Shown here piece by piece: positions 38,822 through 43,826 of a stretch of 64,000 nt of DNA; position 1 is the stretch's first letter; the number at the start of each line of letters is the position of its first letter. Below the pieces are notes generated by a model. That model saw nothing but the letters and a program-made list of their open reading frames with translations, made no database searches and was not told where the DNA came from. This DNA comes from Phenylobacterium sp. (lineage in GTDB: Bacteria > Pseudomonadota > Alphaproteobacteria > Caulobacterales > Caulobacteraceae), in assembly GCF_020253645.1 (NCBI RefSeq), contig NZ_JADCBG010000037.1, positions 24,501-88,500 on the forward strand. The letters run 5' to 3'. Made by a program: the position numbers and the translations under genes.

Positions 38822-39682
38822 ATGCAGGACCTCGCGGGAAAGACCGTCTTCATCACTGGCGGGGCCTCGGGGCTCGGCCTCGCCATGGCCCACGCCTTCG
38901 GCGCCGCCGGCATGAACGTCATGCTCGCCGACATTGAGACAGAGCCCCTGGCCCGGGCCGTCGCGGAGCTGGAGGCGCGGCAGGTGAAGGTCGCCGCCGT
39001 CCAGTGCGACGTCACCGACCGCGCCGCCCTGGTGGCCGCCGCCCGGGAGACGGTGTCCGCCTTCGGCAAGGTCCATGTCCTGTGCAACAACGCCGGCGTC
39101 GGGGCTGGCGGCGCCGTGGACGAGATGAAGCCCGCCGACTGGGACTGGACCTTCCAGGTCAACCTGATGGGCGTGATCTACGGCTTCGAGGCCTTCCTGC
39201 CTCACATCCGCGCCCACGGCGCGGGCGGGGCCATCATCAACACCGCCTCCATGGCGGGCCACATGTCGCCGCCGGGCATGGAGGCCTATAGCGCCTCCAA
39301 GTTCGCCGTGGTGGCCCTCACCGAGGGCTGGGCGGCCCAGCTGGCGCCCGAGAACATCCAGGTCCAGGTGCTGTGCCCGGGGTTTGTGCGCACCCGGATC
39401 AACCAGTCGGGCCGCAACCGCCCGGCCAGGTTCGGCGGCCCGCAGGTGCGCGAGATCGTCCCCGACGACCGGGTGGCCAACGGCATCGACCCCGCCCGGG
39501 TCGGCGCCCGGGTGCTGGAGGCCCTGCAGGCCGGAGACCTCTACATCTTCACCCATCCGGACATGCGGCCCTTCGTCCAGATGCGCTTCGCCGGGATCAT
39601 GGAGGGCTTTGACTCCGCCGACCGAAGCCAGGCCCTCAAGGGCATGGACTACCGCACCCCGGACCTCGACCTCCTGCCCTGA
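38822..39682 (+). CDS. Short-chain dehydrogenase/reductase
   Basis: TGGASGLG, NNAG, NTAS, YSASK. Confidence 0.93.
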   Translation: MQDLAGKTVFITGGASGLGLAMAHAFGAAGMNVMLADIETEPLARAVAELEARQVKVAAVQCDVTDRAALVAAARETVSAFGKVHVLCNNAGVGAGGAVDEMKPADWDWTFQVNLMGVIYGFEAFLPHIRAHGAGGAIINTASMAGHMSPPGMEAYSASKFAVVALTEGWAAQLAPENIQVQVLCPGFVRTRINQSGRNRPARFGGPQVREIVPDDRVANGIDPARVGARVLEALQAGDLYIFTHPDMRPFVQMRFAGIMEGFDSADRSQALKGMDYRTPDLDLLP

Positions 39683-39747
39683 GGCGCGGGGTCCCGCCGG
39701 CCTCCGGGGCTGGACGATCCCGCGGCGATGGGCTAGGGACCCGGCCC

Positions 39748-39825
39748 ATGTTCCGTCAGGTTCACCATCACGCCCCCCACCATCCGACCTGCGAAAGCGG
39801 GAGCGGGCGGGTGCGTTCGGCCTGA
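39748..39825 (+). CDS. Putative his leader peptide MFRQVHHHAPHHPTCESGSGRVRSA
   Basis: 25-codon ORF with 5 His codons within 7 codons, ending 82 nt upstream of hisS. Confidence 0.75.
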   Translation: MFRQVHHHAPHHPTCESGSGRVRSA

Positions 39826-39907
39826 TCGAACCTCCGGCGCCGGCCCCCGCGCAATGCGGACGGGGCCGGCCGGCGGCTCCGTCCCTGGCCAACCAAGGGA
39901 TAGGACC

Positions 39908-41404
39908 ATGAGCACCCCCAATACATCGACAGACCCAGCGGAGGCGTCACGCCCCGAGGCCCGCGCGCCCCGCGGCTTCGTTGACCGCCGCGCCCGCGAC
40001 CTGGCCGCAGAGCGCCGGATCCTGGCCCGGGTCTCCGAGGTCTATGAGCGCTATGGCTTCGAGGCCCTCGACACCGGCGCCCTCGAGTACGCCGACGCCC
40101 TGGGCAAGTTCCTGCCCGACGCCGACCGTCCCAACGAAGGCGTCTTCGCTCTGCAGGACGACGACGACCAGTGGATGGCCCTGCGCTACGACCTCACCGC
40201 GCCCCTGGCCCGCTTTGTCGCCCAGAACCGCGAGGGCCTGACCCGGCCCTTCCGGCGCTACGCCTACGGCCCGGTCTGGCGCAACGAGAAGCCCGGCCCG
40301 GGGCGTTTCCGCGAGTTCACCCAGTGCGACGCCGACACGGTGGGTTCGGCCCGGCCCGAGGCCGACGCGGAGATCATCGCCATGGCCGCCGAGGGCCTGG
40401 CCGCCGCCGGCCTGCCAGAGGGCGGCTATGTCCTGCGCATCAACAACCGGCGCCTGCTCAACGGCCTGCTCGACCGGGCCGGCGTGGCGGACGAGGGCCA
40501 GAAGCTGGCCGTCCTGCGGGCCGTCGACAAGCTGGACAGGCTGGGCCCGGAGGGCGTCCGCCTCCTCCTCGGCGAGGGCCGGAAGGACGAGTCCGGGGCC
40601 TTCACCCGCGGGGCCGGGCTCACGCCCTCGGCGGCCGAGTCCGTCCTGGCCTTCACCGCCGCGGGGGCGGGCGACCGGGCCGAGACCCTGCGCCGGATCG
40701 CCGCGGTGATCGGCGGCTCGGCCGAGGGCGACGCCGGGCTCGAGGAGCTGGCGGGCATTGACCGGGCCCTCGCCGGCATGGGTGTGGGCGCCGACCGGGC
40801 GGTCTTCGATCCCTCCGTGGTCCGGGGGCTGGAGTACTACACCGGCGCCGTCTTCGAGGCTGAGCTGCGCCTCGAGACCCTGGACGAGAAGGGCCAGCCG
40901 GCCCGGTTCGGCTCGGTGGGCGGTGGCGGCCGCTATGATGACCTGATCGCCCGCTTCACAGGAGAGCGCACCCCCGCCACCGGCTTCTCCTTCGGCGTCT
41001 CGCGCCTCGCCGCCGCCCTTCGCGCCGCGGGCCGGGACCTGGGCCGGGAGGCGAGGGGGCCTGTCGTGATCATCGCCTTCTCGCCGGACGACATGGCCGC
41101 CTACTTCGCCGTGGCCGCCGAACTGCGGGCCGCCGGGATCGCCGCCGAGGTCTATCTCGGCGCTTCCGGGATGAAGGCCCAGATGAAGTACGCCGACCGC
41201 CGTCTGTCTCCCGCCGCCGTCATCCTGGGGGGTGACGAGATCGCCGCCGGGACGGTCACCATCAAGGACCTCGACCTCGGCCGGGCCCTCGCCTCCGACG
41301 TCACGGACAACGCCGCCTGGCGGGCCGAACGCCCGGGCCAGCAGACCGTCCCCCGCGACCAGTTGGTCGGCGTGGTCCGGCGCATCCTGGGGGACGCGCC
41401 ATGA
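39908..41404 (+). CDS. hisS: Histidine--tRNA ligase
   Basis: PRGFVD, LRYDLTAP.ARF, WRNEKPGPGRFREF.QCDAD, VRGLEYYTG, GGGRYD. Confidence 0.97.
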   Translation: MSTPNTSTDPAEASRPEARAPRGFVDRRARDLAAERRILARVSEVYERYGFEALDTGALEYADALGKFLPDADRPNEGVFALQDDDDQWMALRYDLTAPLARFVAQNREGLTRPFRRYAYGPVWRNEKPGPGRFREFTQCDADTVGSARPEADAEIIAMAAEGLAAAGLPEGGYVLRINNRRLLNGLLDRAGVADEGQKLAVLRAVDKLDRLGPEGVRLLLGEGRKDESGAFTRGAGLTPSAAESVLAFTAAGAGDRAETLRRIAAVIGGSAEGDAGLEELAGIDRALAGMGVGADRAVFDPSVVRGLEYYTGAVFEAELRLETLDEKGQPARFGSVGGGGRYDDLIARFTGERTPATGFSFGVSRLAAALRAAGRDLGREARGPVVIIAFSPDDMAAYFAVAAELRAAGIAAEVYLGASGMKAQMKYADRRLSPAAVILGGDEIAAGTVTIKDLDLGRALASDVTDNAAWRAERPGQQTVPRDQLVGVVRRILGDAP

Positions 41405-42531
41405 TCCAGACCCCGGCTCTTCCGCAAGCCCGGCTCGAGGCGATCCGCACGCCTTTTCGGGAGACCGGAGCGGACTGGGTGCAACCCCCGGTCCTTCAGC
41501 CCCTGTCCTTGATCCTTGACCTGGCGGGAGAGGCCCTCCGCTCTCAGCTCTTCGTGCTTCAGGCGGCGGGTGGGGAAGAACTCTGCCTTCGCCCGGACCT
41601 CACCACGCCCGTGGCACGGCTGCACCTTGCGTCCGGTGCGGCGACCCGGGACTACGCCTATGAGGGGCTTGTCTTCCGGGCCTCCGCGCATGAACCTCAG
41701 GAGGTGCTGCAGATCGGCATAGAGAGGTTCGCGCCAGAGGCCGATCGGGTCTCGGCCGACGCGGATCTGGTGGACCTGATCTGGCGCGCCGCGATGGGCG
41801 GGGGGCGGCGGGACCTGTCGCTAAGGCTGGGTGATGCGGGTCTCTTTCGCGCCTTTGTAGAGTCCCTCGCCCTGAGCCCGGTCCAGACTTCCCGGCTGGT
41901 GCGGATGGCCGCCCGACCCAGCCAGATGGCCGCAGAGCTGGCCGGAGCGGGCGAGTCGGCCCTCCCGCGGGAGGAAGAGGCTGTGATTGCAAGGCGGCTC
42001 GGCGCCCTTCCGCCAGAGGAGGCTGCGGCCCTTCTGGAGGAAATCTGGAGCCTCTCAGGCATCACCCCGGTGGGAGGGCGAGGTGCGATGGAGATCGCCG
42101 CCCGGCTTATCCGCCGCTCCGAGTCCGCCCTGGCGCCCGCCCTCTCTCAGGGCGAGGCGGACGCTGTCCGAGCTTTCCTGGCGGTTCGGGACACGCCCCG
42201 GGAAGCCCTGAAGCAGATCGCCCGGCTGGCGCCAGGCGCAGGGACCCTGCAGGCGCGACTCACCGACTGGGCGCGCCGACTGGACAGGATCGAGGCGGCG
42301 TCCGCCGGCCTTGCCGCCACTGTTTTCGAGGCCGCGCCCCGAGGCGATTTCGCCTATTACGACGGCCTGGTCGTCGAGGTCCTCTCTGACGCCCTGGGCC
42401 CCGATCGCCCCCTTGCCGCCGGCGGGCGGTACGACGGTCTTCCCGCCCGCCTCTCAGGGGCGCCGTGGACCGGATCGGCTCTGGGCGGGATGGTCCTGCC
42501 CGGACGAGCCATCCTGGAGGCGGGACAATGA
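41401..42531 (+). CDS. hisZ: ATP phosphoribosyltransferase regulatory subunit
   Basis: LCLRPDLT.PV, Y.Y.G.VFR, Q.GIE, AYYDG, AGGRYDGL; HisRS paralog lying between hisS and hisG. Confidence 0.9.
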   Translation: MIQTPALPQARLEAIRTPFRETGADWVQPPVLQPLSLILDLAGEALRSQLFVLQAAGGEELCLRPDLTTPVARLHLASGAATRDYAYEGLVFRASAHEPQEVLQIGIERFAPEADRVSADADLVDLIWRAAMGGGRRDLSLRLGDAGLFRAFVESLALSPVQTSRLVRMAARPSQMAAELAGAGESALPREEEAVIARRLGALPPEEAAALLEEIWSLSGITPVGGRGAMEIAARLIRRSESALAPALSQGEADAVRAFLAVRDTPREALKQIARLAPGAGTLQARLTDWARRLDRIEAASAGLAATVFEAAPRGDFAYYDGLVVEVLSDALGPDRPLAAGGRYDGLPARLSGAPWTGSALGGMVLPGRAILEAGQ

Positions 42532-43478
42532 ACGAGCCGCTGATCTTCGCCATTCCCTCAAAGGGGCGATTGAAGGAGCAGGTCGAGTCCTGGCTCGAGG
42601 ACTGTGGCCTCGGCCTCGACATGAGCGGGGGAGAGCGGGGCTACCGGGCCCGCCTTCGCGGTGTCGACGGCGTCCAGGTCCGGCTCTTGTCCGCCAGCGA
42701 CATCGCCTCCGCCCTGGTGGCCGGTGAGGCGCATCTTGGAATCACGGGCGAGGACCTTCTGCGGGAACAGGGCGCGGAGGCGGCTGCGTCCGCCCTGCTG
42801 CTGCGGGCTCTTGGCTTCGGCCGGGCGGACCTGGTCGTCGCCGCGCCCCGCAGCTGGCTGGATGTCTCGACGCTCGCCGACCTGGAGGAGGTCGCCCATG
42901 AGCGCCTGGTCCGAACTGGCCGCCGGCTGCGGGTGGCCACAAAGTACCTTGTCCAGACCCGTGAGTTCTTCGCCCGCCACGGAGTGACGGACTATCGGAT
43001 CGTGGAGTCCGGCGGCGCCACTGAGGGGGCGCCGGCTGCAGGCGTCGCCGATGTGGTGGTGGACATCACCACCACCGGAGCGACCCTGCGGGCCAATGAC
43101 CTGAAGATCCTTCGTGACGGGATCATTCTCCGGAGCCAGGCTCAGCTGACGGCCGCCCTGCGGGCGCGATGGACGCCGGAAGGGCTGGTTGCGGCGGAAT
43201 CGCTGGTCAGGATCGTCGAGGCCAGGGCCGCGGCCCACGCCTCCGCGACACTCATCTGGCCGGGTGGCGATTCGGACCCTATCCTTCCTGACCTGGAGGC
43301 TCTCGGGGCCGTACGCCGGCCGAATGGTCTCCTGGCTCCGGTCGATCTGGTGGCCCGTGTTGCGGCCCGACTGACGGCCGCGGGGCGCGGGCCCGTCACG
43401 GCCTCACGCCCCGACTTCGTCTTCGAGACGGCCTGCCCGCCGATCGAGCGGCTGCGCAGCGCCCTGCAACTTATTTGA
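42528..43478 (+). CDS. hisG: ATP phosphoribosyltransferase
   Basis: AIPSKGRL, LGITGEDL, LGFGRA, RVATKY, GATEGAP..G.AD..VDITTTG.TL.AN.L. Confidence 0.96.
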   Translation: MNEPLIFAIPSKGRLKEQVESWLEDCGLGLDMSGGERGYRARLRGVDGVQVRLLSASDIASALVAGEAHLGITGEDLLREQGAEAAASALLLRALGFGRADLVVAAPRSWLDVSTLADLEEVAHERLVRTGRRLRVATKYLVQTREFFARHGVTDYRIVESGGATEGAPAAGVADVVVDITTTGATLRANDLKILRDGIILRSQAQLTAALRARWTPEGLVAAESLVRIVEARAAAHASATLIWPGGDSDPILPDLEALGAVRRPNGLLAPVDLVARVAARLTAAGRGPVTASRPDFVFETACPPIERLRSALQLI

Positions 43479-43569: not shown

Positions 43570-43689
43570 GTCCTGCGAGAGACATGGCGGCCATTGAACC
43601 GTCAATCTCCGGCGTTTCGGGGAGGAAACGCCCTCTTCAATTCCAAGGCCGAAGGCCGAGACAACCCGCCGGGAGGCGGGTTGTTTTTT
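43570..43689 (+). ncRNA. Putative trans-acting small RNA (~120 nt)
   Basis: Own promoter; stem GGCGTTTC/GAAACGCC with loop GGGGAG; outer ATTGAA/TTCAAT pairing; intrinsic terminator; 5' end estimated. Confidence 0.7.
43661..43689 (+). terminator. Intrinsic terminator of the sRNA
   Basis: Perfect 10-bp stem ACAACCCGCC-ggga-GGCGGGTTGT followed by TTTTT. Confidence 0.88.
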
Positions 43690-43826
43690 GAATCCGGCGG
43701 AACTTTGACAAAGCCGTCAAATCCATTTCAGCGGCGACAAGGGCGGGCGCCAATCCCCGCCAGAGCCTGCTCCTGCAGGCCTGATTCGCCTGGGCGAAGG
43801 GCGCCGGATGGCGGAAGTGACATCGT

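Follow-up and report, generated by a model that had tools for sequence, protein, structure and literature searches.

How might the hisS-hisZ-hisG operon of a Phenylobacterium species be made to respond to histidine? We examined this question in a 64,000-nucleotide stretch of contig NZ_JADCBG010000037.1 (hereafter the window, whose numbering is used for all positions), in which a reading of the DNA alone (hereafter the sequence-only reading) had proposed an unannotated histidine-rich leader open reading frame (ORF) and a terminator-less attenuator ahead of hisS. The results described below lead us to conclude that the hisS leader probably acts as a translational attenuator that senses histidine through ribosomes on a leaderless, or nearly leaderless, leader ORF.

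The histidine-rich leader ORF and its promoter

The 5' part of the leader contains two features, both on the strand of hisS.

39748..39825, plus strand: leader ORF of 25 codons, MFRQVHHHAPHHPTCESGSGRVRSA; defined by sequence and conserved in 35 leaders
39711..39739, plus strand: promoter P1, with a -35-like TGGACG at 39711-39716 and a -10 box, GCTAGGGA, at 39732-39739; defined by sequence and by the conserved -10 box

The histidine-rich ORF was confirmed by reading the sequence. It opens with the ATG at 39748 and closes with the TGA at 39823-39825, leaving 82 nucleotides (nt) before hisS, and it carries His codons at positions 6 to 8 (CAC CAT CAC, 39763-39771) and at positions 11 and 12 (CAC CAT, 39778-39783). 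When all 1,675 start-stop combinations 8-60 codons in length were taken from the two strands of the window, five His in eight residues occurred in this ORF alone, and given that His makes up 1.3% of the six neighboring proteins, the probability of finding at least five His in 25 residues is about 2e-5. That the ORF is unannotated also proved correct: the peptide has no match in Pfam or NCBIfam, and only one of ten variants is present, unnamed, in a collection of 15 billion proteins. When PF08047 (His_leader) was searched, the window peptide gave no match and the best relative reached 11.2 bits, short of the cutoff of 25.

For comparison with relatives, 80 species-level genome loci across Alphaproteobacteria and 80 metagenome loci were fetched by HisS alignment. 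A His-rich small ORF was found at the same place 5' of hisS in 18 of the genome loci and in 17 from metagenomes, and the leader set used throughout consists of 35 distinct leaders, including that of the window. All named hosts belong to Phenylobacterium, Caulobacter or unclassified Caulobacteraceae; among the 80 genome and 80 metagenome loci, the His-rich leader ORF was not found in Brevundimonas or in any locus outside Caulobacteraceae. The search for His-rich ORFs scored 22 of 78 loci on the forward strand, compared with 6 of 78 on the reverse strand, a control in which hits are spurious.

The aligned leaders bear the signature of a coding sequence. The ATG is kept in 35 of 35, the peptides are 23-26 amino acids long with the consensus M-T-R-x-x-HHH-G-HHH(H)-PT-...-GR-x-R-x-A, the stop codons are interchanged (TAA in 16, TGA in 12, TAG in 7), and insertions and deletions in the coding part are whole codons. 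The sequence-only reading had made its proposal depend on conservation of the His codons in relatives, and every one of the 35 leaders encodes 4-7 His. At the best-conserved His columns the first position is C in 34 of 35 leaders and the second is A in 33-34 of 35, while the third is a mixture of C and T (for example, 17 C and 16 T). The spacing between the leader ORF stop and the hisS ATG ranges from 72 to 96 nt. From the codon-periodic conservation, the whole-codon indels, the invariant ATG and the interchangeable stops, we infer that the leader ORF is translated.

The promoter-like element that had been noted immediately upstream is also present: TGGACG (39711-39716) is followed after 16 nt by CTAGGG (39733-39738), which ends 9 nt 5' of the leader ORF ATG. 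In 19 aligned loci, a GCTATAG -10 box is kept 9-10 nt ahead of this ATG, GCTAGGGA being the variant in the window. The box fits the -10 consensus of Caulobacter sigma73 promoters, which we take to be GCTANAWC. A scan of 39300-40300 with the E. coli-type sigma70 consensus detected no promoter. No Shine-Dalgarno (SD) sequence precedes the leader ORF. In Caulobacter crescentus, a transcription start site (TSS) was mapped at 3785405(-) for CCNA_03628, histidyl-tRNA synthetase, and its sigma73 motif, TTCCCCTCACCGCCGCCATCCGCTA, begins at -35 (Zhou et al. 2015, PMC4287350 Dataset S4). The homologous C. crescentus promoter to which this mapped TSS belongs is TTCCCC..CCGCTA, and in the closest relatives in our set (L027 and L010) 13 nt separate the same sigma73 motif from the leader ORF ATG 3' of it. 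By alignment to these close relatives, and not to the NA1000 sequence, the C. crescentus +1 would lie about 3 nt 5' of the homologous AUG; by homology, the +1 in the window is predicted to lie about 2 nt 5' of the leader ORF AUG. The conserved -10 box and the mapped C. crescentus TSS thus back the earlier guess of a near-leaderless mRNA. Leaderless mRNAs are abundant and efficiently translated in C. crescentus (PMC4117421).

Competing helices and the hisS ribosome-binding site

The RNA between the His codons and the hisS start codon is divided into the following elements.

39783..39807, plus strand: hairpin P0 in the leader ORF, made of region 0 (UCCG/CCUGC), a GAAA loop and region 1 (GCGGG/CGGG); minimum free energy (MFE) -11.9 kcal/mol
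39797..39813, plus strand: region 1, the 3' half of the leader ORF, GCGGGAGCGGGCGGGUG; can pair with A (39832-39850) once P0 is opened
39815..39831, plus strand: stop-codon hairpin GUUCGG/UCGAAC with UGA in the loop; from the fold, with analogous hairpins in relatives
39834..39852, plus strand: segment A, with the core GCCGGCCCC at 39839-39847; pairs with B in the MFE structure
39856..39876, plus strand: segment B, GCGGACGGGGCCGGCCGGCGG, containing GGGGCCGGC at 39862-39870; pairs with A or C
39875..39888, plus strand: segment C and the anti-SD, GGCUCCGUCCCUGG; pairs with B' or the SD region
39893..39910, plus strand: segment D, composed of CC, the SD-like AAGGGAUAGGA (39895-39905) and the hisS ATG (39908-39910); in the OFF fold, the whole SD is paired with C

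The sequence-only reading had proposed that A pairs with B, that an overlapping B' (GGACGGGG, 39858-39865) pairs with C (CTCCGTCC, 39877-39884), and that TCCCT (39882-39886) pairs with AGGGA (39896-39900) at the hisS ribosome-binding site (RBS). All of these segments are located where they had been placed, and the helices proposed for the leader appear exactly in the MFE structure calculated with RNAfold. In the window, as in nearly all relatives, the unconstrained MFE fold contains P0, the stop-codon hairpin, A:B and C:SD, and we refer to this arrangement as OFF. P0, which is also seen in the MFE folds of relatives, begins at the last base of His codon 12. In the window, the A:B hairpin (39834-39876) has an energy of -30.8 kcal/mol and the C:SD hairpin (39878-39905) one of -16.3 kcal/mol; in most relatives, the C/anti-SD hairpin includes the start codon as well, as CCRUCCGUC:GACGAUGG. 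Pairing in the free MFE folds takes up between 7 and 14 of the 17 nt around the start site, about 11.6 on average.

The stalled state was modeled by constrained folding, a ribosome footprint being placed over the last His codon and thereby covering region 0. In the window, a footprint on His codon 12 led to pairing of region 1 with A, with the stop hairpin nested inside (-31.3 kcal/mol), and this 1:A helix has 10-18 base pairs in most leaders. The alternative B:C helix joins 39858-39867 to 39875-39884 (10 base pairs, -23.9 kcal/mol). When growing transcripts of the window were folded with the stalled footprint, 1:A was present at 108 nt and the combination of 1:A and B:C was the MFE structure at 138-145 nt; once the SD region was added, A:B with C:SD regained an advantage of 1-4 kcal/mol. 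Among the 35 leaders carrying the footprint, the B:C state was the MFE structure in 8 and lay within 3 kcal/mol of it in 17. The link that the sequence-only reading had overlooked would be P0, whose 3' arm, according to these models, would be freed to pair with A when the ribosome pauses at His codons 11 and 12.

RNAalifold applied to a MAFFT alignment recovered only B:C, with A and the anti-SD/SD arms out of register. Because the arms were out of register, we did not use a covariance model but compared the RNAduplex energies of cognate segment pairs (from the same species) with those of non-cognate pairs (from different species) by permutation. Four pairs showed a cognate advantage.

1:A, cognate advantage -1.24 kcal/mol, p 0.003
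A:B, cognate advantage -1.96 kcal/mol, p <=0.0002
B:C, cognate advantage -1.69 kcal/mol, p <=0.0002
C:D, cognate advantage -1.62 kcal/mol, p <=0.0002

No significant cognate advantage was detected for any of the eight control pairs (0:B, 0:D, 1:C, A:D, 0:A, B:D, 1:B and A:C), and the outcome was unchanged when 25 representatives below 85% identity were used. The helices of both the OFF set and the alternative ON set therefore co-evolve. In the B:C helix, 93.1% of the cells in the 35 leaders are standard pairs, compared with 34-52% when the partner was slid by 1-3 columns. One Y/R pair in this helix covaries (U-A in 17 leaders, C-G in 13), and on a neighbor-joining tree of HisS the change between U-A and C-G took place in at least three independent switches. 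The proposed B':C helix is thus upheld (93% paired, with covariation), as are A:B and C:SD, which likewise co-evolve, and these comparative data support the logic of the earlier proposal that a shortage of His-tRNA would flip A:B to B':C and free the RBS. We also considered a mimic of C in the leader ORF, termed C0 (CCAUCCGAC, identical to the C core), as a partner for B' or the start region. It was ruled out by the finding that cognate pairs were no better than non-cognate pairs (0:B p=0.98; 0:D p=1.0) and, further, by an A.C mismatch in species in which Y is C.

The effect of the two states on the hisS RBS was expressed as the ensemble energy needed to unpair the stretch from -13 to +4 relative to the regulated start.

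Free leader: mean of 35 leaders 9.7 kcal/mol; window 12.9 kcal/mol
Ribosome on the stop codon: mean of 35 leaders 10.0 kcal/mol; window 10.4 kcal/mol
Stalled ribosome with B:C: mean of 35 leaders 5.1 kcal/mol; window 4.4 kcal/mol

The cost of opening was lower in the ON state than in the free leader in 35 of 35 leaders. The sequestration of the SD by pairing of TCCCT with AGGGA, as had been suggested, is seen in the OFF fold, where the SD is fully paired, and it is opened in the B:C state.

In the mechanism that we propose, transcription from P1 would begin about 2-3 nt ahead of the leader ORF AUG. When His-tRNA is plentiful, the ribosome would reach the leader ORF's stop codon, and region 1 would be covered by it or recaptured by region 0 in P0; A would pair with B, C and the anti-SD would pair with the SD region, and hisS would be poorly initiated, as would hisZ and hisG, which are coupled to it via ATGA overlaps. 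When His-tRNA is scarce, the ribosome would dwell on the His codons, above all on codons 11 and 12, which abut P0, and its footprint would hold region 0. The freed region 1 would then pair with A, B, left without A, would pair with C, and the SD would be exposed. The leader would thereby act as a six-segment relay, with 0:1, A:B and C:D formed in the OFF state and 1:A and B:C in the ON state. A translational output would not require the decision to be taken a single time as the RNA is transcribed; for as long as a ribosome occupies the distal His codons, region 1 could invade A:B at any moment. We infer that pausing at the His codons drives the switch and that the helices fold in this order.

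Several points weigh against this mechanism. At equilibrium, even with the stalled footprint in place, A:B with C:SD is still favored, by 4.1 kcal/mol in the window and by up to 10.7 kcal/mol in some relatives, which means that the switch must operate kinetically or through strand invasion. Pausing at His codons 6-8 leaves the ribosome short of P0, so that the model does not account for the first His cluster. Covariation was not significant for P0 (p=0.33 and 0.08) or for the stop-codon hairpin (p=0.46), these two elements being either too conserved or too loosely delimited to give a signal, and the segment boundaries for the duplex test were set manually. The MFE z-scores are modest (-1.54 for the window) and do not discriminate between the strands. 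Lastly, translation of the leader ORF and the response to histidine are both read from the sequence.

The output of the leader and alternative explanations

Downstream of the leader are the three genes that it would control.

39908..41404, plus strand: hisS, histidine--tRNA ligase; TIGR00442, 382.7 bits against a cutoff of 286.75
41401..42531, plus strand: hisZ, ATP phosphoribosyltransferase regulatory subunit; NF008949, 384.6 bits, below the equivalog cutoff of 420; a member of the HisZ family
42528..43478, plus strand: hisG, ATP phosphoribosyltransferase (short form); TIGR00070, 167.1 bits

The HisS protein is 84-94% identical to Phenylobacterium HisS proteins. The stop and start codons overlap as ATGA between hisS and hisZ (41401-41404) and between hisZ and hisG (42528-42531), which argues that hisS, hisZ and hisG are translationally coupled. 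An in-frame ATG at 39854 was considered as the start of hisS and rejected, since relatives do not conserve it and it falls within B. The gene 5' of the leader encodes an SDR oxidoreductase and ends at 39682.

A consensus scan of 39300-40300 for intrinsic terminators was empty, and in the window as in Phenylobacterium neither A:B nor B:C is followed by a U-tract, in agreement with the absence of a U-tract recorded by the sequence-only reading. Because there is no U-tract terminator, translational control, possibly with secondary Rho polarity, is the reasonable reading of the output, as had been proposed. One alternative is that the same leader senses His but that its main output is transcriptional, the sequestration of the RBS being only the trigger; with a closed RBS, Rho would terminate transcription in the leader or near the start of hisS (polarity), or else A:B would act as an atypical terminator. 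In favor of this, transcription is what the classical his and trp leaders control, A:B is a highly stable hairpin (-30.8 kcal/mol), the RNA 3' of the leader ORF stop is C-rich, and B is followed by CUUUG or CUUGG in Caulobacter. In C. crescentus, moreover, the small RNA (sRNA) detected by tiling arrays, about 173 nt long, covers just the leader. However, A:B and B:C lack the U-tract, and the last helix, which co-evolves, buries the SD and the start codon, an arrangement that would be needless in a pure terminator. We regard a mainly transcriptional output as unlikely, albeit the best of the alternatives.

A second alternative concerns the strand. The sequence-only reading had suggested that a Caulobacter tiling-array RNA named CC3513 may correspond to this leader. 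The two do occupy the same DNA, but the strand on which CC3513 is annotated is opposite to that of hisS. In a permissive Rfam scan of the window, RF01528 ('CC3513 sRNA') gave a full-length but weak match to the minus strand at 39699-39861 (16.5 bits, E=3.5), below the gathering threshold of 40, whereas the Caulobacter leaders scored 99.9-135.9 bits and L003 scored 47.8 bits. The matches, which were obtained in the window and in L010, L015, L027, L091, L092 and L003, were always opposite to the hisS strand. In the Caulobacter leaders, the RF01528 model spans the promoter, the leader ORF and A up to the start of B, and its consensus, when reverse-complemented, reads ATG GCC CGC AAG CCG CAC CAT CAC GGC CAC CAC CAC CAT CCG ACC..., that is, the leader peptide. 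Rfam lists RF01528 as a trans sRNA gene and gives it no function. The element in the window is a divergent homologue of the RF01528 DNA, read on the other strand.

It could be argued that the functional unit is the opposite-strand sRNA (RF01528, CCNA_R0080) and that the His-rich ORF is merely its reverse complement. All RF01528 matches, at 100-136 bits in Caulobacter, 47.8 in L003 and 16.5 in the window, are on the minus strand, and CCNA_R0080, which is the RF01528 DNA in NA1000, was seen by tiling arrays; however, the NA1000 table of Schrader et al. gives tiling-array detection only for this entry, with neither RNA-seq support nor a 5'-PPP site (PMC4117421 suppl. 3). The antisense strand folds at least as stably, being more stable by 15 kcal/mol on average owing to the effect of G.U pairs, but the composition-corrected z-scores are no better for antisense (-1.7 vs -1.5), so that folding energy fails to separate the strands. 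A G.U pair occurs in B:C in 22 of 35 leaders, and it would become an A.C mismatch on the other strand. Furthermore, the mapped TSS and the sigma73 motif are on the hisS strand, the three-nucleotide periodicity (ATG, CAY codons, swapped stops, whole-codon indels) would be meaningless for an antisense RNA, and the helices engage the hisS SD. We favor the hisS strand, to which the periodic coding pattern, the TSS with its promoter, the G.U pairs possible only in the sense RNA and the involvement of the hisS SD all point, and we consider an opposite-strand functional unit very improbable. RF01528 is probably misfiled in both strand and type. A literature search for CC3513 and CCNA_03628 retrieved unrelated papers only.

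Least credible of all is a functional His-rich micropeptide (for example, a metal-binding one), or mere coupling or reinitiation for hisS, without His sensing: although the PT and GR.R.A motifs are fairly conserved and functional leader peptides are known in alphaproteobacteria (peTrpL, PMC7298713), the C-terminal half swaps amino acids (I/S, V/D/G) yet keeps the nucleotides that pair with A and region 0, the gap of 72-96 nt between the stop and the hisS ATG is too long for direct coupling, and the exclusive association with hisS-hisZ-hisG, together with the run of His codons, points to sensing.

Relatives, comparable systems and significance

Some relatives have other arrangements upstream of hisS. 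In many loci of Phenylobacterium and other Caulobacteraceae (L002-L009, L016, L017, L022, L039 and others, e.g., L003:2433-2500), the SD/ATG of the attenuator opens not hisS but an extra ORF of about 17-30 codons, which ends on the hisS ATG (ATGA), or about 12 nt short of it, or runs in frame with hisS. A conserved CCTTGCCGC...GCTAAGCG motif inside this extra ORF, about 9 nt 5' of the hisS ATG, looks like a second sigma73 promoter that would yield a leaderless hisS mRNA. The extra-ORF module is absent from the window, L001, L081 and Caulobacter. Loci of Caulobacteraceae/Brevundimonas that are without the His leader (L008, L011, L013, L014, L019, L021, L030, L033, L094, L102 and L107) carry the same kind of motif (CCTTGCC-N-G(C/A)TAAGC-like) 6-9 nt 5' of the hisS ATG, which suggests that hisS in these loci may be expressed as a leaderless mRNA without His attenuation. 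A different His leader, of 12 codons, is found at L132:772-810, L150:690-728 and L154:793-831 (MNTRTHHHHHHA, MKTRLHHHHQHS and MNIALHDHHHHS), about 10 nt 3' of a TTGAC-N17-TATCC-like promoter and 166-221 nt 5' of hisS. It is followed by CGCGCC/GGCGCG/GCGCCUC alternative helices, and in L150 a U-rich tract and a tRNA-Gln gene lie ahead of hisS. The HisS proteins of these loci are 58-61% identical to that of the window.

Beyond the operon, RF01527, the Caulobacter carbon-starvation sRNA CrfA, matched the window at 43575-43693 on the plus strand (40.8 bits against a gathering threshold of 38), between hisG and a TIGR03862 flavoprotein gene. The order hisS-hisZ-hisG followed by CrfA is common to L001, L003, L010, L015 and L027 (45-160 bits). 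The window sequence was found only in freshwater DNA metagenomes, and in the runs containing a Caulobacter relative the contigs are genome-like.

The proposed relay has the architecture of the Salmonella his leader, with an SD sequestor in place of the terminator. For the enterobacterial his leader, Johnston et al. reportedly put forward a six-segment model in 1980, with A:B/C:D/E:F alternating with B:C/D:E. Both leaders have a run of His codons in a short leader ORF and three hairpins in a row that can be exchanged for two shifted ones, so that the entire series would flip when a ribosome pauses at the His codons. In contrast to hisL, the final hairpin here hides an SD and there is no U-tract terminator, the leader ORF is without an SD and would have next to no 5' untranslated region, and the genes regulated would be hisS-hisZ-hisG, not hisGDCBHAFI. 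RF00514 (His_leader) had no match at E<=10 in 39000-40500 and none at the gathering threshold across the whole window. The T-box leader is the usual means of hisS control in Firmicutes; no T-box was matched in a permissive scan of 39000-40500 or in the gathering-threshold scan of the whole window.

In mycobacteria, stalled ribosomes relieve RBS sequestration at leaderless polycysteine short ORFs (sORFs), as reported by Canestrari et al. (bioRxiv 10.1101/834739). The mycobacterial sORFs share with the hisS leader a run of cognate codons and an RBS-sequestering structure, and a leaderless sORF as the first cistron and terminator-free translational control would probably also be common to both. 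Unlike them, the hisS leader uses His, belongs to Alphaproteobacteria rather than Actinobacteria, and would control an aminoacyl-tRNA synthetase together with HisZ and HisG. In the mycobacterial model, the stalled ribosome itself blocks the sequestering structure, whereas the hisS leader would use the three-step relay that runs from P0 through 1:A to B:C. The two are not homologous in sequence. We consider the mycobacterial polycysteine sORFs to be the closest system in mechanism and the enterobacterial his leader to be the closest in architecture.

Closest in gene class are leader ORFs that carry cognate codons ahead of the matching synthetase gene and are known in the same bacterial class. 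These are uORFC-8-2 5' of cysS in Rhodobacterales, whose motif ends in an intrinsic terminator (PMC8632094), and a small leader coding sequence 5' of trpS in C. crescentus (PMC4117421). Unlike what we propose for the hisS leader, the descriptions of the cysS and trpS leaders include neither a leaderless mRNA nor joint control of a biosynthetic enzyme, and hisS is not mentioned in the main text of PMC8632094 or PMC4117421. Comparative work on attenuators recognizes that translational variants exist (PMC9413887). Our literature search, which did not extend to Vitreschak et al. 2004, where an earlier prediction is possible, found no description of a hisS leader in Alphaproteobacteria, nor the comparative predictions of such leaders that the sequence-only reading had mentioned. 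The proposed mechanism is of a known kind, leader-peptide attenuation, and, as far as the literature found shows, the Caulobacteraceae hisS leader family was previously unrecognized.

Taken as a whole, the Caulobacteraceae hisS leader seems rather more likely than not to represent an unrecognized family of leaderless, His-sensing translational attenuators with a three-step relay, a translational counterpart of the Salmonella his attenuator by which the synthetase and ATP phosphoribosyltransferase would be regulated together, and for which CC3513/CCNA_R0080 would be a strand-misassigned record. A bolder extension, by analogy with rnTrpL/peTrpL in Sinorhizobium, is that the abundant leader RNA or the leader peptide may also act in trans. 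If the attenuator is confirmed, it would be, as far as the literature found shows, the first histidine leader-peptide attenuator in Alphaproteobacteria and a non-actinobacterial case of a leaderless sensory short ORF. It would explain how the supply of histidyl-tRNA synthetase is coupled to the first step of histidine synthesis in Caulobacter and Phenylobacterium, and the ATGA overlaps would show how one translational decision can spread over an operon. The orphan RF01528 and the 'antisense sRNA' annotation in NA1000 would gain a function and, probably, the correct strand, and the hisS leader lends itself to direct tests in a model organism, C. crescentus.

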